Positions 5,467 through 55,617 of a stretch of 64,000 nt of DNA are shown here, one piece after another. Source of the DNA: an uncultured Candidatus Bathyarchaeia archaeon (GTDB lineage Archaea; Thermoproteota; Bathyarchaeia; Bathyarchaeales; DTEX01); assembly GCA_964584965.1 (NCBI GenBank), contig CAZPBM010000068.1, positions 2,660-66,659 of the forward strand. Reading direction: 5' to 3'. Position 1 is the first letter of the stretch, and every line of letters begins with the position of its first letter. The position numbers and the translations under genes were made by a program. Under the pieces are notes generated by a model. The model had not been told where the DNA came from. It did not search any database and saw only the letters and a program-made list of their open reading frames with translations.

Positions 5467-6777
5467 TTGGAGCAGCCAGTCCATTTGAGGATAACCGAAA
5501 TAGACGAGAGAACATCTTCGTCTTCTAATGGCCAGAAAAAGCTAGTCGTGTTCGACGTCGAAGGAGTAATTATTCCCAAAGGCAAATTCTTGCTCTTTGA
5601 TGTTGCGGGTCAAAAAAATCTAAAATCCTTTCTGGCAGCGTCTTCCCTTGGCCTTCTTTACGAAGCCGGTCTAACGCCTCTTAAAAAGACTTTAGAAGAC
5701 CTCTACATGGCTCTAAAGGGTTATGAGCTAAACCGGTTTCTCGCCATTTTCGAGGATGTACCCTTGTTGCCTGGCGTTGAGGAAACGTTTAGGGAACTTG
5801 GGAAATCAGGAGTCAAGACAGCTCTTATCAGTTCAGGAATTCCGAGGGTTGCATTAGAGAAGCTTGGTCAAAGGCTTGGAGTGGATTTTGTTTCTGGCTT
5901 AGAAATAGGCGTGTCTGGCGGAGCTTTGACCGGTGAGGTTTGGGGAGATGTTATCGAACCTGATGGGAAGGCTACTGCTTTAAGGAAGATGGTCGAGGAA
6001 AACAATTTGGGTTCTTATTATCGGGTGGTGGTTGCGGATGACAGAAACAACCTTTCCATGTTCAAACTTTGTAACCTAAGAATAGGGTACAATCCTGATT
6101 ATGTTTTAAGCTGCAAGTCAGATGTTGTTGCAAGGGGGGAACTTACAACTATTATTCCCACTATTAAATGTGGAGTCTTGCCTCGGCTAGATCGTCATCT
6201 ATCTCGAAACACGTGTATACGAGAAACCATACATATGAGTAGTTTTTTTGTTTCTTTTGTTTGTATGTACCTTCTTAGCCGCTACTTTGTTGCCTTTTTA
6301 ACTCTATTGCTAACAGTGCTCTACGCATCTTCTGAAGTGTTAAGAATGCTTGGAACATACATACCGTTTTTCACAAACGTAACAAAGCTTGCTGCGCGAA
6401 AGTCGGAGTACCAAGAGTTCGTTTCCTCCCCGTTGTTCTTTGCCATAGGAATCATGCTGTCTCTTGTGGTTTTTCCTGAACCTATAGGCTACGTTTCTGT
6501 TGCAGTCCTTACCTTAGGAGATGGCTTCGCGTCAATCTTCGGGCAAAAATTCGGAAACAAACAAATACCGTATAATAAAATAAAATATGTGGAAGGAACT
6601 TCATTCGGGTTCATATTTGCCTTTCTCGGTTCTATGTTGTTCGTTCATCCATTTAAGGCATTAATCGCGTCAGCTGTTGGTATGTTCATTGAGTCTTTGC
6701 CATTGCCGTTGAACGATAACCTCGTAATTCCGCTTTTTTCGGGACTTGCATTGGTCATTTATTCAGGCATTATTTAG
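5467..6777 (+). CDS. fusion protein: HAD-IB (SerB-like) phosphatase domain + C-terminal polytopic dolichol/polyprenol kinase-like (COG0170 / CTP-transferase family) domain
   Basis: The N-terminal half carries HAD motifs: VVFDVEGV (motif I with E at the D+2 position), TALISSG, GKATAL and VVADDRNNLSMF. The C-terminal half is hydrophobic and contains LGDGFASIFGQKFG...KYVEGTSFGF, the pattern of Sec59/phytol-kinase/CdsA-type enzymes. The TTG start lies 3 nt after the pyrE stop. Confidence 0.55.
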   Translation: MEQPVHLRITEIDERTSSSSNGQKKLVVFDVEGVIIPKGKFLLFDVAGQKNLKSFLAASSLGLLYEAGLTPLKKTLEDLYMALKGYELNRFLAIFEDVPLLPGVEETFRELGKSGVKTALISSGIPRVALEKLGQRLGVDFVSGLEIGVSGGALTGEVWGDVIEPDGKATALRKMVEENNLGSYYRVVVADDRNNLSMFKLCNLRIGYNPDYVLSCKSDVVARGELTTIIPTIKCGVLPRLDRHLSRNTCIRETIHMSSFFVSFVCMYLLSRYFVAFLTLLLTVLYASSEVLRMLGTYIPFFTNVTKLAARKSEYQEFVSSPLFFAIGIMLSLVVFPEPIGYVSVAVLTLGDGFASIFGQKFGNKQIPYNKIKYVEGTSFGFIFAFLGSMLFVHPFKALIASAVGMFIESLPLPLNDNLVIPLFSGLALVIYSGII

Positions 6778-37841: not shown

Positions 37842-38330
37842 TTATGTTTTGTATATTTTTTGCATTATGTGTACGTCCAAGAGTTTTCCAAATTTTTTGC
37901 CCACTTCCCTCATGGTTCCGACGTGTTCAAAGCCGAACATTTCGTGAAGGTGGACGCTGGCTTCGTTAGACTTGGCGATGTGGGCGATGACTGTGTGTAG
38001 GCCGCCTTTTTGTCCTTGGTCGAGAATTTCTTTCATAAGCCTTTTGCCGATGCCCTTTCCTCGATGCTCCTCCTCCACGTAAATCGAGATTTCAGCAGTA
38101 GCAGAGTACGCGCACCTGTCTGACCATTTGCTTAAGGACGCCCAACCCACAACTCCGCCGTCCTCCTCAGCGACCAAAATAGGATGCCTCGAACCGTGGC
38201 TCATAAACCAGGGCCTCTGCTCCTCAACAGTCTTAGGCACAACATCAAAAGTAGCCACAGTCCTCAAAACAGCCTCATTGTAAATCTCAGTTATAGCGCC
38301 CAAATCATCCAAAACCGCACGCCTAACCAA
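37842..38330 (-). CDS. GNAT N-acetyltransferase (phosphinothricin-acetyltransferase-like)
   Basis: The ORF contains VRRAVLDDLGAITEIYNEAV...ISIYVEEEHRGKGIGKRLM (the acetyl-CoA motif Q/RxxGxG/A). The true start is probably a TTG near 38330. The N-terminus of the track ORF comes from a T/G-rich spacer. Confidence 0.8.
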   Translation of the reverse strand: MVRRAVLDDLGAITEIYNEAVLRTVATFDVVPKTVEEQRPWFMSHGSRHPILVAEEDGGVVGWASLSKWSDRCAYSATAEISIYVEEEHRGKGIGKRLMKEILDQGQKGGLHTVIAHIAKSNEASVHLHEMFGFEHVGTMREVGKKFGKLLDVHIMQKIYKT

Positions 38331-38423
38331 CAACAAACAACCAACCCCAAAACAACCAAATAAAAACAAAAAACAGAAGAAACATTAAACCTTTACCATA
38401 ACAAAAAACCATAGAAAGACAAC

Positions 38424-38493
38424 ATGGCCAGAAAAGCTGACCCGACTATATATACCCCCCTCCCCCTCAACAACATGCACGGACAACAAACAA
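38424..38493. repeat. intergenic repeat copy A (G-runs + TATATATA + hairpin)
   Basis: The plus strand 38424-38483 matches the reverse complement of 54474-54533 at 57 of 60 positions, and at 52 of the first 53. Looser similarity continues for about 10 more nt. See the findings. Confidence 0.75.
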
Positions 38494-38521
38494 GCAACAA
38501 AAAACAAAGAAAACACAACAA

Positions 38522-38550
38522 CACGCATAGGCCACAAAAATCGTCCAGAC
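38522..38550 (-). other. pre-23S rRNA processing stem, 3' flank strand
   Basis: CACGCATAGGCC (38522-38533) is the exact inverted complement of 41659-41670. CGTC and CAGAC (38542-38550) pair with 41651-41654 and 41643-41647. Confidence 0.6.
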
Positions 38551-38564
38551 ACAGGAACTTTTTC

Positions 38565-41628
<3,064 letters not shown>

Positions 41629-41639
41629 TACTCGGTTCC

Positions 41640-41783: not shown

Positions 41784-41816
41784 GATATAAATTTTGCTGT
41801 CGTAGAATATAAATTT
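41784..41816 (-). promoter_or_regulatory. tandem TATA boxes (AAATTTATAT x2, 21 nt apart) upstream of the 23S leader
   Basis: The minus strand reads AAATTTATATTC...AAAATTTATATC, about 110-140 nt upstream of the processing stem. This matches the archaeal TATA consensus TTTAWATA. The transcription start site is not determined. Confidence 0.45.
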
Positions 41817-41868
41817 AGTGAAATCTCAACCATGACTTAACTAAGGTTTTGTTGAGACTTGTTCTGTT

Positions 41869-47175: not shown

Positions 47176-47198
47176 TTGCTTATCTTCCTTAGGTGTCT

Positions 47199-49205
47199 AT
47201 GTTGAAGGAGGAGATGAACAGCTTCGACATCGCAGCGGTCACCGTAGAATTAGACCATAAACTTAGAGACTTCAGAGTTGATAACATTTACCAAATAAAT
47301 CCTAAAACCTTACTTTTAAACTTTCATGGAAAAGAAGGTGCACGTAGCAGTCTGTTGATAGAAGCGGGGAAAAGGGTCCACATTACTTTTTACGAAATAA
47401 AGAAACCCTCAAAGCCTATGAAGTTCTGCATGGTTCTTAGGAAATACTTACGAAACGGCGTGGTTGAAAAAGTTGAACAGCGCGGGTTTGAACGGATTGT
47501 TGAGTTGAGCATTATAAACAGGGGTGAACGGTATCGTCTTGTAACTGAGGTTTTTGGCGACGGAAACGTTATTCTGGTGGATTCAGATGAAAGGATATTA
47601 CAAGCCCTGAGTTACAAAAGAATGCGGGACAGAAACATTCTTCGAGGAGAAACATTTCATTACCCACCTCAAGTCGGTATAGACCCGAGAACTCTTAACC
47701 GCCAAAAACTGGCTGACTTAAAAAGTTGCGGATCAACTGAGGTTGTTAAGGCGCTTGCTAGGTTCTTATGTATTGGCGGATTTTACGCTGAGGAAGTTCT
47801 CCTCCGTTCTGGGATACCTAAGAATAAACCATGCGTTTCTCTTAGCAATGAAGAACTTGACTCTCTTTTCAAGAGTTTGCAAAGCCTTTTTTTGTTAGTT
47901 CAAGATGGGCATTTTAAACCGTACATTTATCTTGATGAAGATGGGAAGATGGTTGATGTTGCTCCCTTTCTTTTAAGGAGATACGCGAGTTTTAAATGCG
48001 TTCAGTTCGATGATTTTAACAAAGCTTTAGATGAGTTTTATTCGAAAACTTCAGTTGAAACACAAATCCAAGTTGATAAAGACTACGCTGACCAAGAGGT
48101 TGCAAGGCTTGAAAGAGTTCTAAAAAAACAAGAGGAGACGCTGCGTGAATCTAAACAGAAGGCTGAAATTTATAGAAAAATAGGCGATTCAATATACCAG
48201 CATCTTGGTGATTTTCAGCTTCTTCTCGAAAAGGTAATGACGGAAAAAAGAAGTGGTAAAACCTGGAAAGAAATATGTGAGGCTATAGTAAAGGAGAAAA
48301 GCGAATTAAGGATCCCATCTATTTATTTTGAGGATCTTAACCCGCAGACTTTGATGCTGCAAGTTTCGGTTGACTCTCAATCTTTTGACCTGAATCTTAA
48401 GCTTTCAGCGCAAAAAAACGCTGCTGAGTATTATGAGTTGGCGAAGAAGGCGGAAAAAAAAATTGAGGGCGCCCAGAAAGCTATTGAAACAACAAGAGGA
48501 CAAGTAGAAAAAGCTAGGCTTCTAGGAGCTGAAAAGATTGAGAAGACTTCTTTGGTATCTCATGTTAGTAGGAAAAGAGAGTGGTTTGAGAAGTTTCGTT
48601 GGTTCTACTCGTCAGAAGGGCTTCTTGTAATTGGCGGTAGGGATGCGACAACAAACGAAATTATTATCAAAAAACATGTTGAACCATACGACATGGTCTT
48701 TCACGCTGGGATTCAAGGAGCACCATTCGTCGTGATAAAAACTAAGGGGGCAACGCCCTCGGAGCAAACCATTAAAGAAGCAGCGAAGTTCGCAGCCTCG
48801 TATTCAAGCGCTTGGAAAGCAGGCATGACTTCTGTTGATGTGTATTGGGTTTGGCCTGAACAGGTTAGTAAAACTCCTCCTTCAGGTGAATTTTTGCCAA
48901 AAGGTGCCTTTATGATTTATGGGACTAAGAATTACGTTAAAGGCGTAGTTTTGGAAGTTGCAATAGGCTTGATTGGGGAAGCTCAAAACTTCAGAGTCAT
49001 CGGCGGACCGCCCGAAGCTGTTGCTCATCATACAGGAACCTTTGTTAAACTGGTTCCAGGAAAAGAAACCAGTGGAAAACTTGCAAAACAAATACGTGAG
49101 AGACTTGCGAATTTTTCATCCGAGAAAATTAGGCAGGAAGTTCAAAAGTTGCCTTTGGAGGATATTCAATGGTTTATCCCTCCGGGGGGAGGAACCATAA
49201 AATAG
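47199..49205 (+). CDS. NFACT-family ribosome quality-control protein (Rqc2/NEMF/FbpA homolog)
   Basis: The ORF has an N-terminal NFACT-N region, a central coiled coil, and an NFACT-R/DUF814 motif (FRWFYSSEGLLVIGGRDATTNEIIIKKH...DMVFHAGIQGAPFVVIK). Confidence 0.85.
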   Translation: MLKEEMNSFDIAAVTVELDHKLRDFRVDNIYQINPKTLLLNFHGKEGARSSLLIEAGKRVHITFYEIKKPSKPMKFCMVLRKYLRNGVVEKVEQRGFERIVELSIINRGERYRLVTEVFGDGNVILVDSDERILQALSYKRMRDRNILRGETFHYPPQVGIDPRTLNRQKLADLKSCGSTEVVKALARFLCIGGFYAEEVLLRSGIPKNKPCVSLSNEELDSLFKSLQSLFLLVQDGHFKPYIYLDEDGKMVDVAPFLLRRYASFKCVQFDDFNKALDEFYSKTSVETQIQVDKDYADQEVARLERVLKKQEETLRESKQKAEIYRKIGDSIYQHLGDFQLLLEKVMTEKRSGKTWKEICEAIVKEKSELRIPSIYFEDLNPQTLMLQVSVDSQSFDLNLKLSAQKNAAEYYELAKKAEKKIEGAQKAIETTRGQVEKARLLGAEKIEKTSLVSHVSRKREWFEKFRWFYSSEGLLVIGGRDATTNEIIIKKHVEPYDMVFHAGIQGAPFVVIKTKGATPSEQTIKEAAKFAASYSSAWKAGMTSVDVYWVWPEQVSKTPPSGEFLPKGAFMIYGTKNYVKGVVLEVAIGLIGEAQNFRVIGGPPEAVAHHTGTFVKLVPGKETSGKLAKQIRERLANFSSEKIRQEVQKLPLEDIQWFIPPGGGTIK

Positions 49206-49388
49206 GCATCGTTAGGAATTGTGTTTTTTCTTGTTCCGTGCATGTTGAAACTTTTTTCTTTTTATAGGCTCTGTGGAAACAATGTGGAATTGTGGATTCA
49301 GTGATTGTGCTTAAAGCTTTCATGTGTAGACTAATCTAATTATGCTTTGGTTTGATTAAGGTTGCTTTTTTTACGGATGCGTGTCTTT

Positions 49389-50426
49389 TCATTGTGTCTT
49401 TGATATTTTGTACAATCCGTTGTTTTTTTCAGTTTTGAAATTGGTTCCTAAAAACGTTGTTGCGAGCCACATGTTTGATTCGATGTGTTCGGTTAGCATC
49501 CGTGTGAGATACTCAGATTCGTCCTCTGCTAATGCTATGAATGGAATGAGCATGTCAGCTAAGTGCACATCAACCGTTGCCTTTGCCTGGATTTCAATCA
49601 GCAAGTTTTTTATGGCTTCATAGGCAACTTTCTCACTTGGTTTATGTATCTCGCCGATCGAATCGCTGCCTAATATCGCGTTGGTGTCCGTCGTGAACCA
49701 AAGGACTAATGAGCTTCCTTTCTGCAAAGGGTTTGAAAAGTCATTGACTACTTCGATTTTTGGATGGTAACCGTGAGGTGTTAAAAGTCTCTCTGCCTCT
49801 TTTGCTTGGCGCATGGCAACATTTCTGTTAGCTAGGAAAGTACAGACTGAGATGCCTTTGACTTCTGTGATTTTTCCAAATTCCGTTCGTTTAAATGGAA
49901 GCACTTTTGTGCAAGGCTGAACATCCAATGTAACTTCTCCCATGCCTTTTGGGTAATAGCCGTATTTGTTAACCTTAAGTGTTGCTTTCACACCCATCTG
50001 TTCCAATGTTGAAAGTAAGACGAAACGTATGTAATTTATTGTAGGGGAATGAAGGACATCGGTTCCTCCTTTTGAAATTGTAATGCTCACAGGTTGCTGT
50101 GCAAAGATGCACATCGGCAAAACCGTTAAAATTAACATCGGAATGCTTCCCGCGGTTCCAATCTCAGCTTTTATTTGCCCACCTACGATTTTCCTTGGTT
50201 CAAACCATAGTTCTTCTGAACCCAGGAAGGCGCCTTTGATAGTGGCGTTGCAAAGTCTTGCAGCTGCCAGAACAGCTTCTAGGTGTTGAGGCCTAAGTCC
50301 AGGTTCGCTTCGTCTTTTGCGGATATTAAAAATATGCAATGGCTCTCCTGTGATTGCAGCTAAAGCCACGGAAAGTCTAAGAATTGTTCCGCTTCCGCTC
50401 TTTTGGCTTCCATTGATCTCTATCAT
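49389..50426 (-). CDS. rtcA: RNA 3'-terminal phosphate cyclase
   Basis: The ORF contains GSQKSGSGTILRLSVALAAITGEPLHIFNIRKRRSEPGLRPQHL, the RtcA N-terminal signature. Its length of 345 aa fits the family. Confidence 0.9.
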   Translation of the reverse strand: MIEINGSQKSGSGTILRLSVALAAITGEPLHIFNIRKRRSEPGLRPQHLEAVLAAARLCNATIKGAFLGSEELWFEPRKIVGGQIKAEIGTAGSIPMLILTVLPMCIFAQQPVSITISKGGTDVLHSPTINYIRFVLLSTLEQMGVKATLKVNKYGYYPKGMGEVTLDVQPCTKVLPFKRTEFGKITEVKGISVCTFLANRNVAMRQAKEAERLLTPHGYHPKIEVVNDFSNPLQKGSSLVLWFTTDTNAILGSDSIGEIHKPSEKVAYEAIKNLLIEIQAKATVDVHLADMLIPFIALAEDESEYLTRMLTEHIESNMWLATTFLGTNFKTEKNNGLYKISKTQ

Positions 50427-54171: not shown

Positions 54172-54460
54172 TCGGATTTCAACTCATTTAAACAATTGAT
54201 TTAGCACAACCTAAAGAATTCAGGCTGACAAATTAAGGTTATTATGCATATTTAGAGTTTGTGAAATGCCAGTTCTCATGAGAGATGCATGCCTCAACGC
54301 GGGACTCTTAGTTTATGTCTAACTTAGGTTAAAAGTCGCTAAGCATGTTTCCTCGTCTATGCTTCTGATGTGGAATCCTCTGAAATGTGTGTGATCACCA
54401 GCCAGAGTTGCGATAAGCTTGAAAGAGAATGGAATGGTTCGGCTTTTTGTTTGTTGGAAA

Positions 54461-54533
54461 TTGTTTGTTGTTGTCTGTGCTTGTTGTTGAGGGGGAGGGG
54501 GGTATATATAGTCGGGTCAGCTTTTCTGACCAT
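54461..54533. repeat. intergenic repeat copy B (inverted relative to copy A)
   Basis: The plus strand reads ...GTTGTTGAGGGGGAGGGGGGTATATATAGTCGGGTCAGCTTTTCTGACCAT. See copy A and the findings. Confidence 0.75.
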
Positions 54534-54765
54534 CTGCTTAAAGCTCAGGGGGCATGGGGTTGTTTGATGTAGCAATACTGTGTTGTTGAGGATTTTGGAA
54601 ATCATGGAAAGCTTAAGTATGACGGCAGAATCCCTTTTTAGGCATTGTTCAGTTAGTTGCCTTTTTCATTTTTGTTTCTGTGTTTTTTCTTAAAGGCTGG
54701 TTTTTCAAATAAGTTTTTTAACTTGCGTTCATGTTTTTTGGTTTAAACGGTATTGGTGTTCTAAA

Positions 54766-55617
54766 ATGAGTGGCTCTCTTGTGGCTTTGCTTAGGGGAAC
54801 CGATGGTAAAGAGTTGGCTTATAGAGCTTTAAGCGCTATTTCCGCTGACGAGGTTATTTCGATTAGAAAAAGGTTTCTGGTAAAAGTGAACATAACAATC
54901 ATGAAGACAGCTGCTGAGGGCATAACGACAGACCCAATGATGACGGAGGGCATAATAGAATATCTTAAGGACCATGGAGCCAAGGACATTGCTATTGCAG
55001 AGGGAGGCGGATGCGATGTAACTCGAGCTTACCAAAAACTAGGATTCAACGAAATAGCCAGCCGCCAAAATGTTAAACTTATAGACCTTAATCGGGAAGA
55101 GGGAGTCCTCAAGAAAGTTCCTATTCCACATTATATCTCGGAGTTCTGGATTGCTAAGCCTGTTCTGGAATATGACTGCTTAATCAGTGCTCCGAAGCTT
55201 AAGATTCATGCATTGGATTGGCAAGTCACGTTGGCCATGAAGAACCTGATGGGTCTTCTAGCACGAGGAAAACGTGGTTCAATTCACCGCGAGGACCGTG
55301 GAATAGTCGATCTGCTTCAACTTCTTAAGCCTGACCTTTCAGTCATCGACGGGATTATTGGCGGTGAAGAACATGAGCTGCGGAGTAAACCAGTCGAAAT
55401 GAACGTGATTATTGCTGGAAAAGACTACGTGGCAACAGACGCTGTTGGAGCTGCAGTCATGGGATTTTCAGAACATGAACTTCCAAGGCACATAAGACTA
55501 TCTCAGGAAATGGGGTTTGGAACATGCGCCCTAAGCAAGATAAAATTAGTAGGCGATGTCACAATTGATGATGTGAAAAAGAACTTTAAAAGAAGTGGGT
55601 CACACTGGCTTTGGTGA
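54766..55617 (+). CDS. DUF362-domain protein
   Basis: The ORF contains FLVKVNI....GITTDP.M.EGIIEYLKDHGAKDIAIAEGGG...PKLKIHAL, the DUF362 pattern as I recall it. Confidence 0.6.
   Translation: MSGSLVALLRGTDGKELAYRALSAISADEVISIRKRFLVKVNITIMKTAAEGITTDPMMTEGIIEYLKDHGAKDIAIAEGGGCDVTRAYQKLGFNEIASRQNVKLIDLNREEGVLKKVPIPHYISEFWIAKPVLEYDCLISAPKLKIHALDWQVTLAMKNLMGLLARGKRGSIHREDRGIVDLLQLLKPDLSVIDGIIGGEEHELRSKPVEMNVIIAGKDYVATDAVGAAVMGFSEHELPRHIRLSQEMGFGTCALSKIKLVGDVTIDDVKKNFKRSGSHWLW

Follow-up and report, generated by a model that had tools for sequence, protein, structure and literature searches.

A clade-specific family of dispersed, promoter-like intergenic repeats in Bathyarchaeia, with a possible role in genome rearrangement

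Bathyarchaeia are abundant, largely uncultured archaea, and to our knowledge almost nothing is known of their promoters, small RNAs or genome dynamics. Here we describe a short intergenic element on a 64,000-nt stretch of DNA from an uncultured Candidatus Bathyarchaeia archaeon (GenBank assembly GCA_964584965.1, contig CAZPBM010000068.1, positions 2,660 to 66,659 of the forward strand; hereafter the window), in which two near-identical copies, A and B, lie in inverted orientation 16 kb apart, with a third one, copy C, between them. These copies belong to a clade-specific family of dispersed intergenic repeats that occurs within a small group of related Bathyarchaeia. On balance, we take the family to be composed of promoter-like repeats of the 'mobile promoter' type that would also serve as a substrate for recombination, a reading that rests on sequence comparison and that we consider somewhat better than an even bet.

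An earlier, sequence-only reading of the window had listed a miniature repeat family as an explanation for the A/B pair, next to a shared promoter module, a small-RNA start and a protein-binding site, and this option is strongly supported by 29 true copies in relatives and three profile matches in the window. When a 19-nt core was searched against metagenome contigs, 31 stretches were recovered, and in 29 of them clear homology extends past the seed, so that A and B are not simply the two products of a local duplication. One metagenome sample contributes 15 copies on 11 contigs (~640 kb) and a second one 13 copies on 10 contigs (~740 kb), which corresponds to roughly one copy per 40–55 kb in related Bathyarchaeia contigs. 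A 20-mer scan of species-representative genomes yielded one more copy, in a Bathyarchaeota metagenome-assembled genome (MAG; locus L006), in a different context, just 3' of an intron-containing tRNA-like gene. An nhmmer profile built from 20 full copies retrieved A, B and C in the window, as well as degenerate additional copies at other loci. The copies are thus dispersed, multi-copy and non-coding, each spanning 65–190 nt. Viral contigs gave 0 matches, and a viral origin was rejected on this basis.

Within the window, the match between A and B stood up to recounting. The 57 identities claimed over 60 positions (38424–38483 against the reverse complement of 54474–54533) were reproduced, with mismatches at positions 5, 53 and 58, and the additional figure of 52 out of the first 53 proved to be off by one (51/52, or 51/53). 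A repeat search of the window extends the ungapped match to 66 nt that are 95% complementary (arms 38424–38489 and 54468–54533), and a 33-nt core, allowing for up to 3 mismatches, is present at exactly 2 sites in the window and at 0 in 100 dinucleotide shuffles. In their common orientation the two copies read ..TC(C/T)GTGC(A/T)TGTTGTTGAGGGGGAGGGGGG-TATATATA-GTC-GGTCAG-CTTTT-CTG(G/A)CC-AT, and beyond the terminal AT their sequences are unrelated; in copy A, homology to the family continues through ~12 nt of degenerate spacer and reaches 38412. The layout that had been described for the pair (two G-runs, the TATA-like octamer TATATATA and a 6-bp stem with a 5-nt loop) is present in both copies at mapped coordinates (Table 1), and their contexts had been correctly assigned, with A located between the 23S rRNA and GNAT genes and B in a 594-nt divergent intergenic region ahead of the DUF362 gene.

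A concern raised at the same time, that the pair could be an assembly artefact, is answered by the recurrence of both junctions in independent assemblies, so that the repeat is genuine. Copy B and both of its flanks are identical across three independent assemblies (L001–L003), and the junction of copy A was recovered in an independent ENA contig (L038), which was reached by using the neighbouring 415-aa gene as a query. Short Logan contigs begin or end within TATATATA of copies A and B, as is usual for assemblers at dispersed repeats.

The element is modular. It usually measures ~165 nt and consists of a tandem of ~76-nt units, a type 1 followed by a type 2; A and B comprise unit 1 only. Each unit starts with a TTCCGTG-like motif, followed after ~10 nt by a run of G (type 1) or of T (type 2), then by a TATA octamer (TATATATA in type 1, TTTAYATA or TTTATATA in type 2) and 25–35 conserved bases, which in type 1 include the palindrome GGTCAG-N5-CTGRCC and terminate at CCAT. 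In most copies, CCAT and a variable spacer are followed by a second block (TTTTTTCTTTAYATAGGCTCTGTGGAAAC..TGTGGAATTGTGGATT), and homology stops ~35–40 nt after the second TATA-like box. The upstream motif of full copies (TTTTTGTTCCGTGCATGTTG vs TTCTTGTTCTATGCACATTG) repeats at a spacing of 76 nt, as does the TATATAGTCG core in some of them, indicating that the two blocks are a tandem duplication of one unit. The number of units per element ranges from 1 to 3, the tandem being the commonest form and the triple occurring in one relative. Copy C consists of one type-2 unit; it occupies the space that separates the convergent genes NFACT (47193–49205, plus) and RtcA (49389–50426, minus) and is aimed at the RtcA 3' end. 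The idea that A and C are halves of one split element was rejected, since each has its own copy of the upstream motif. A repeat search of three canonical full copies revealed internal 76-nt direct repeats only and no terminal inverted repeats, and an element bounded by such repeats was rejected on these grounds. No clean empty insertion site was recovered: L041, L043 and L044, which carry no element, also differ by rearrangement, and the 5' boundary is fuzzy and T/G-rich.

Where the conserved sequence ends is what makes the units promoter-like. In archaeal promoters the TATA box is centred near -26/-27 and transcription starts at a pyrimidine-purine step. All type-1 single-unit copies end at CCAT, ~30 nt after the start of the TATA octamer, and the A of CCAT lies ~26 nt from the centre of TATATATA; given this established geometry, the homology boundaries of both unit types coincide with the position expected for a transcription start, which is suggestive of promoter function. 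The type 2 box is of the canonical archaeal TTTAWATA type and in this respect resembles the two boxes found upstream of the 23S gene, the likeness being a match of sequence. Within the window, the TTCCGTG...TATA grammar is confined to element sites, and the notion that the element represents the general promoter style of the organism was rejected for that reason.

Genes that surround the copies do not behave as a set of promoter targets. Once shadow open reading frames (ORFs) had been filtered out by codon usage, with a score that was trained on these genomes, the next real downstream gene is co-oriented with the element at ~12 and convergent at ~9 non-redundant loci; upstream orientation is likewise about even. 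The co-oriented downstream genes are unrelated (they encode an RpoB-like RNA polymerase subunit, LigT, ferredoxin, sulfatase, a thioredoxin-like protein and membrane proteins), with no paralogous genes among those examined, and they begin 85–750 nt from the first TATA box, past several oligo-T runs. In the window, T-runs intervene between element and gene for both GNAT and DUF362: a ~95-nt T-rich leader with T6 runs separates the predicted start of copy A from GNAT, and 263 nt separate the start of the copy B TATA box from the DUF362 ATG, in a divergent region shared with a glycosyltransferase gene. DUF362 also has its own TATA-like box, TTTAAAC, ~27 nt before the ATG. The unrelated genes, the neutral orientation, this separate DUF362 box and the grammar restricted to element sites indicate that the element is neither a generic promoter nor the promoter of a protein-gene regulon. 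The shared promoter/BRE module (BRE, TFB-recognition element) envisaged in the sequence-only reading hence survives in one half: the promoter grammar is there, as a TATA box and conservation that ends ~30 nt later at CCAT, but a common promoter for GNAT and DUF362 is contradicted by the orientation-neutral family, the unrelated downstream genes, the DUF362 box and the intervening T-runs. Three loci lie just 3' of co-oriented stable-RNA genes, namely the 23S gene of the window, a tRNA gene (L030) and a two-intron tRNA gene (L006/L023/L036), and this proximity may be an enrichment, on small numbers; ARAGORN, run with and without introns, detected a single tRNA adjacent to an element and none within the window.

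Comparisons anchored on neighbouring proteins are free of seed bias, and are the most informative regarding the history of individual sites. The block that encodes two glycosyltransferases, a 181-aa protein and RtcA is kept in relatives, where the gene past the RtcA 3' end varies by species (NFACT, CxxCxxCC, CBS or PRTase), and the junction, reached via the protein, carries an element aimed at the RtcA 3' end both in the window and in relatives. This site holds unit 2 only in the window; in a 93% relative (L053) it holds unit 2 and, where the contig ends, what looks like a unit-1 hairpin. There is a full element (E=1e-24) in 88% relatives (L048 and L049) and a diverged array of three TATA units, each after TTCCGTG and a T-run or G-run, in 79% relatives (L050 and L051; 4128–4347, minus). 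Its occurrence across relatives down to 79% indicates that the RtcA site is old, and that its architecture persists as the sequence drifts.

At the DUF362 site, downstream synteny is conserved everywhere and the upstream neighbour is variable. Distant relatives have FtsX 100 nt away and no element; a 90% relative (L040) has an isochorismatase gene upstream and a decayed unit 1, and the window has a glycosyltransferase gene and a canonical unit 1. Homology between the window and L040 starts at the G-run, and the L040 copy is ~70–75% identical, no better than the adjacent intergenic DNA. L035 combines the upstream flank seen in L040 with a canonical element and a different downstream side, and copy B is a junction with three flank combinations: glycosyltransferase and DUF362 (window), isochorismatase and DUF362 (L040), and isochorismatase and a different downstream side (L035). 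Among the loci ascertained by the search seed, two pairs that come from populations ~98% identical share one flank only (L025/L028 and L013/L017). The DUF362-cupin-214aa-DHDPS-nitroreductase block, like that of RtcA, is conserved across relatives (L040–L045 and L048–L052, compared with 49.2–55.6 kb of the window), and the outer neighbours of both blocks differ in nearly every species, which indicates that the gene order of this clade has been reshuffled in small blocks. Overall, the family appears to evolve by birth-and-death or by homogenisation, and it repeatedly marks synteny breakpoints.

One probable rearrangement is seen at L006, also a seed-ascertained locus. Upstream of its element L006 has the flank of L023/L036, and downstream of it that of L010; on contig Ga0209102_1000023 the L010 (~19.4 kb, minus) and L023 (~59.6 kb, plus) elements are inverted copies ~40 kb apart. 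Because the flank combination of L006 is exactly what one inversion would yield, we infer that the arrangements of the two related species probably differ by a single 40-kb inversion, through recombination between the inverted copies. The A/B pair shares the diverging geometry of that pair, and by analogy an inversion between A and B would be possible in principle. The suggestion that the 38.4–54.5 kb segment inverts thus draws on the relatives; for the window segment itself no assembly contains the inverted isomer, all junction-spanning contigs from several samples being in the window orientation. No recombinase gene is present near A or B, and the genes between them carry core functions (23S, fumarase, RadA, NFACT, RtcA and glycosyltransferases). 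In L011, where two inverted copies are 2.9 kb apart, the genes between them are of the radical-SAM/wyosine, ferredoxin and CCG-domain kinds, with no transposase gene among them.

The hairpin was analyzed through its variants and its predicted folds. The 3' arm, compared across 25 non-redundant copies, is CTGGCC in 13, TTGACC in 5, TTGGCC in 2, CTGACC in 2 and disrupted in 3, and the intact variants are all transitions that retain G-T/U pairing on the forward strand. They follow two subfamilies, CTGGCC with ATCTTRCCTATTCT and TTGACC with ATTTTT, so that few independent events lie behind the stem variation; moreover, 4/6 possible transitions in the arm are wobble-compatible anyway, and compensatory change was not observable because the 5' arm lies inside the search seed. 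Forward-strand folds of A and B did not differ significantly from those of shuffled sequences (z = +0.97 and +0.80), nor did the whole element when folded as single-stranded DNA (z = +0.31); the reverse strand of copy B reached z = -2.05, due only to its perfect 6-bp stem. RNA folds of what follows B (z = -0.04) and C (z = -0.24) revealed no structured payload, and a C/D-box RNA or a CRISPR leader was rejected upon inspection of downstream sequences, which contain no box C/D pairs and no repeats. Rfam searches of the window and 17 loci at the gathering threshold, and of the surroundings of A, B and C at E<=10, returned the 23S rRNA and two ordinary tRNAs only. An RNA-level hairpin had been argued for from a G-U pair; the observation that wobble pairing is kept is correct, while the inference is undercut by the subfamily pattern and by forward folds that are no better than shuffles, and the stem variants are weak evidence for an RNA or single-stranded DNA hairpin. 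The commonest stem is an imperfect palindrome, which counts mildly against a symmetric dimeric operator.

Taken as promoter-like repeats, the units would operate as follows. Each would recruit TBP, TFB and RNA polymerase, and transcription would start ~25 nt after the TATA box (positions in Table 1; ~49297, plus, for copy C). Since oligo-T runs occur within 35–80 nt after the units, the transcripts would mostly be short, and would only sometimes extend into the downstream gene. The ~80-nt segment that follows the predicted start of copy C is a candidate for a small or antisense RNA; alignments with L048, L049 and L053 show ~70–75% identity, with a weak 5' hairpin that includes one compensatory pair only. 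Spread or homogenisation of the family would proceed by recombination or gene conversion and not via a recognisable transposase, and near-identical copies of 65–165 nt would act as substrates for homologous recombination, reshuffling gene order, including by inversions between inverted copies. A bolder version, which we regard as unlikely, would make the 76-nt units autonomous transcription units that lack a conserved product ('promoter-only genes'). At any site they reach, they would give rise to short RNAs, non-coding or antisense; they would multiply, and stay homogeneous, through recombination or gene conversion in the absence of a transposase and would set the rearrangement breakpoints of this clade, as a self-propagating chromosomal promoter family in Archaea.

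Several observations weigh against the promoter-like reading. The ~12:9 ratio of orientations is what is expected of a neutral repeat. The L040 copy, the one unbiased orthologue of copy B, has decayed as fast as its surroundings, so that strong constraint does not act on individual copies; the remark that neutral DNA should not stay 95% identical is consequently half right, since this decay points to turnover or homogenisation of the family and not to site-specific constraint. The conserved 'island' in L006/L023/L036 was ascertained by exact-match seeds. Directly before the TATA box, type 1 units have GGGGGG (purine-rich, with no A) and type 2 units TTTTTTC, where the 23S promoters have AAA/AAAA; the A-rich BRE of the latter, an element that sets direction, is therefore absent from both unit types, and directionality is read from the homology boundaries alone. 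Copy numbers are rough, as the pattern of the genome scan demanded six Gs and under-counts, and the metagenome scan was not exhaustive, having missed Ga0129301_1002288, a JGI contig with copy B. Lastly, the arrangement in L006 could be a MAG chimera at the repeat.

Given this orientation-neutrality and the decay of individual copies, the main rival is a non-autonomous mobile element, such as a MITE (miniature inverted-repeat transposable element), a REP/REPIN or a PATE derived from IS200/IS605, with incidental TATA-like tracts, no role as a promoter, a transposase located elsewhere and a hairpin that serves as the single-stranded DNA recognition site. It is a viable explanation, if a rather doubtful one. 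It would account for dispersal at ~1 copy per 40–55 kb, for the indifference to gene orientation, for the occurrence of canonical and decayed copies side by side, for the contigs that assemblers break within the element, for the three loci just 3' of stable-RNA genes and for G-T pairing kept on one strand only, as in a strand-specific single-stranded DNA or RNA hairpin. It fits less well with canonical copies that lack terminal inverted repeats and a second terminal hairpin and do not fold significantly as single-stranded DNA, and with the absence of a transposase inside the L011 pair and among the downstream genes examined. In addition, both homology boundaries fit promoter geometry and not arbitrary ends, the modular composition of 1, 2 or 3 units is unlike a fixed-length MITE, and the RtcA-site element has been retained with its architecture down to 79% protein identity. 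If the element were instead a regulated strong promoter/operator that is shared by the adjacent genes (GNAT and DUF362) and drives them directly, with GGTCAG-N5-CTGACC as the putative operator of one transcription factor, the palindrome would lie after the TATA box and before the predicted start, which is the classic position for an archaeal repressor, and the co-orientation of both A and B with the next gene, as well as the conserved TTCCGTG ~25–30 nt before each TATA box, would also make sense. We hold such a regulon to be improbable, since at ~9/21 non-redundant loci the element is directed at a convergent gene, towards its 3' end (among them the RtcA site, conserved across species), the downstream genes have no functional theme, their start codons are 85–750 nt away with several oligo-T runs in between, DUF362 has a proximal TATA-like box of its own, 95% identity over 66–165 nt far exceeds what an operator needs, and CTGGCC, the commonest stem (13/25 loci), is an imperfect palindrome.

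A small structured RNA or an intrinsic-terminator-like element, in which the hairpin (with the T-run) would function in RNA that reads through from upstream, for instance at 23S and tRNA transcript ends, appears more improbable still. Although the variants are all transitions that retain forward-strand G-U pairs, the hairpin of subfamily II directly precedes T5–T6, a terminator scan picks the hairpin of copy A and three loci follow co-oriented stable-RNA genes, there is no Rfam match even at E<=10, the forward folds of A and B do not surpass their shuffles, and the variants track subfamilies while the seed hides any covariation. Half of the copies have a divergent upstream gene and would receive no read-through RNA; termination in archaea requires oligo-T and not hairpins, and this explanation offers no account of the G-runs, of the TATA box or of the second unit as a whole. 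The hypotheses that are restricted to this contig, namely a recent local duplication, an assembly artefact or a dedicated invertible switch for 38.4–54.5 kb, have very little left in their favour beyond the fact that the window contains just two type-1 copies, inverted and 16 kb apart. Duplication and artefact are refuted by the 29 further copies in other genomes and by junctions reproduced in independent assemblies from several samples, and a switch is at odds with the same orientation in every junction-spanning contig, with the absence of an adjacent recombinase gene and with intervening genes that are core housekeeping ones.

Among described systems, the putative mobile promoters (PMPs) of prokaryotes are non-coding sequences, ≥80% identical over ≥50 nt, that lie upstream of unrelated genes within one genome and are shared among related taxa, with no obvious transposase and an unknown mode of movement (Matus-Garcia, Nijveen & van Passel 2012; PMC3575422). 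A and B, 95% identical over 66 nt ahead of the unrelated GNAT and DUF362 genes, are similar enough to qualify. The definition of PMPs, however, considered positions -150 to -50 relative to annotated starts, and they mostly form pairs (PMC3575422), whereas copy A lies at approximately -160 to -95 of the GNAT start, partly within this range, and copy B at approximately -300 to -230, outside it. The Bathyarchaeia family also differs in its dozens of copies, archaeal TATA-box grammar, tandem 76-nt units and neutral orientation, and many of its copies (copy C, and the ~40% of members that face convergent genes) are not upstream of any gene. Halovirus HF2 carries repeated intergenic sequences of tens of bp with AT-rich promoter motifs, whose positions are conserved among relatives; these precede transcription units in a viral genome, and all tested copies were experimentally confirmed as promoters (PMC8707807). 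The present repeats are likewise archaeal, intergenic, endowed with promoter-like motifs and kept in position among relatives, but they are chromosomal, are promoter-like by sequence, and ~40% of them face convergent genes.

Correia elements, ERIC and REPIN/BIME are bacterial repeats, small, intergenic and dispersed, which may contain promoters, combine into mosaics or tandems, break assemblies and mediate rearrangements; they have terminal inverted repeats or strong palindromes, together with target-site duplications in the case of Correia elements and a cognate RAYT in that of REPINs (PMC3575422; PMC10969869). In contrast, neither terminal inverted repeats nor a transposase were found here, and the hairpin is only 6 bp long. 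A REP/REPIN arrangement, with an inverted pair around a Y1 transposase and a strong GC-rich palindrome, was not observed at the L011 pair, within the contigs covered. MITEs are defined by terminal inverted repeats that match those of an insertion sequence family, plus target-site duplications, and the SM elements of Sulfolobus are archaeal MITEs, non-coding, multi-copy, intergenic and 100–300 nt long. The present family resembles them in being archaeal, non-coding, multi-copy, dispersed and intergenic, and differs by its lack of terminal inverted repeats and by its modular build of 1–3 units. In concept, the family is closest to PMPs and the promoter-carrying repeats of HF2; hallmarks of MITEs, REPINs and Correia elements, such as terminal inverted repeats and a cognate transposase, were not found in the loci examined.

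The relevance of the family lies mainly in the genome dynamics, promoter biology and annotation of Bathyarchaeia. If the units are active promoters, they would supply a sequence-defined strong-promoter cassette together with predicted start sites; if they are inactive, they would represent a new archaeal dispersed repeat devoid of MITE hallmarks, which would be ordinary biology and still useful for annotation and binning. In either case, the family accounts for contig breaks within the element and for spurious ORFs seeded on it. The association with breakpoints and the 40-kb inversion would provide a concrete mechanism for the scrambling of gene order among close Bathyarchaeia.

Table 1. Coordinates of element copies, their parts and the neighbouring genes in the window.
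Feature	Position	Strand	Remarks
Copy A, single type-1 unit	38412–38488	minus	nhmmer E=2.6e-21, profile positions 22–98
Copy A, TCCGTG	38478–38483	minus	
Copy A, G-runs	38455–38468	minus	
Copy A, TATATATA	38447–38454	minus	followed by GTC
Copy A, hairpin	38426–38442	minus	GGTCAG/CTTTT/CTGGCC, then CCAT
Copy A, predicted start	38425	minus	A of CCAT
Copy B, single type-1 unit	54464–54536	plus	nhmmer E=3.2e-20, profile positions 17–89
Copy B, G-runs	54489–54502	plus	
Copy B, TATATATA	54503–54510	plus	
Copy B, hairpin	54515–54531	plus	perfect; GGTCAG/CTTTT/CTGACC
Copy B, predicted start	54532	plus	A of CCAT
Copy C, single type-2 unit	49227–49304	plus	nhmmer E=3.1e-12, profile positions 100–174
Copy C, TTCCGTG	49234–49240	plus	followed by T-run
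Copy C, TATA-like TTTTTATA	49259–49266	plus	followed by GGCTCTGTGGAAACAATGTGGAATTGTGGATTC
Candidate short transcript of unit 2 (putative)	49297–49378	plus	~80 nt; ends in T7 before RtcA stop codon
23S rRNA gene, complete	38564–41629	minus	copy A ~75 nt past 3' end and ~40 nt past processing-stem 3' half (38528–38539)
GNAT acetyltransferase gene	37842–38330	minus	downstream of and co-oriented with copy A; likely start is the third TTG, 38330
DUF362 gene	54766–55617	plus	downstream of and co-oriented with copy B

The 23S gene of the window stands alone, with no 16S, 5S or tRNA genes detected within the 64 kb. Its flanking features lie at 38528–38539, ~41655 and ~41790–41835: upstream of the gene, two TTTATAT boxes are preceded by A-runs, and the complementary processing-stem halves CACGCATAGGCC and GGCCTATGCGTG stand on either side of it. 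Two ORFs that overlap the copies are spurious: the first (38424–38936, plus, 170 aa) starts at the ATG opposite the CCAT of copy A, runs antisense through the 23S gene and is called as a gene in L038, while the second (54357–54605, minus, 82 aa) spans copy B and is called as a gene in L002/L003. An 11-mer, TGCTTAAAGCT, occurs just downstream of both B (54535–54545) and C (49308–49318); it is not kept at the orthologous position in L048, and is probably due to chance. Another inverted match in the window, of 25 nt (2906–2930 and 48211–48235; 24/25, ACCTTTTCGARAAGAAGCTGAAAAT), falls within coding regions at both sites, one being a 239-aa ORF and the other NFACT, on its antisense strand, and is unrelated to the element family. 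The tRNA(CAT)-like gene of L006 (~5470–5590, minus), with orthologues in L023 and L036, apparently has two introns, one in the anticodon loop and one in the T-loop, and an encoded CCA; it was missed by ARAGORN in both modes and by the Rfam tRNA model, and is near-invariant between species, even though its flanks are 85–90% identical.

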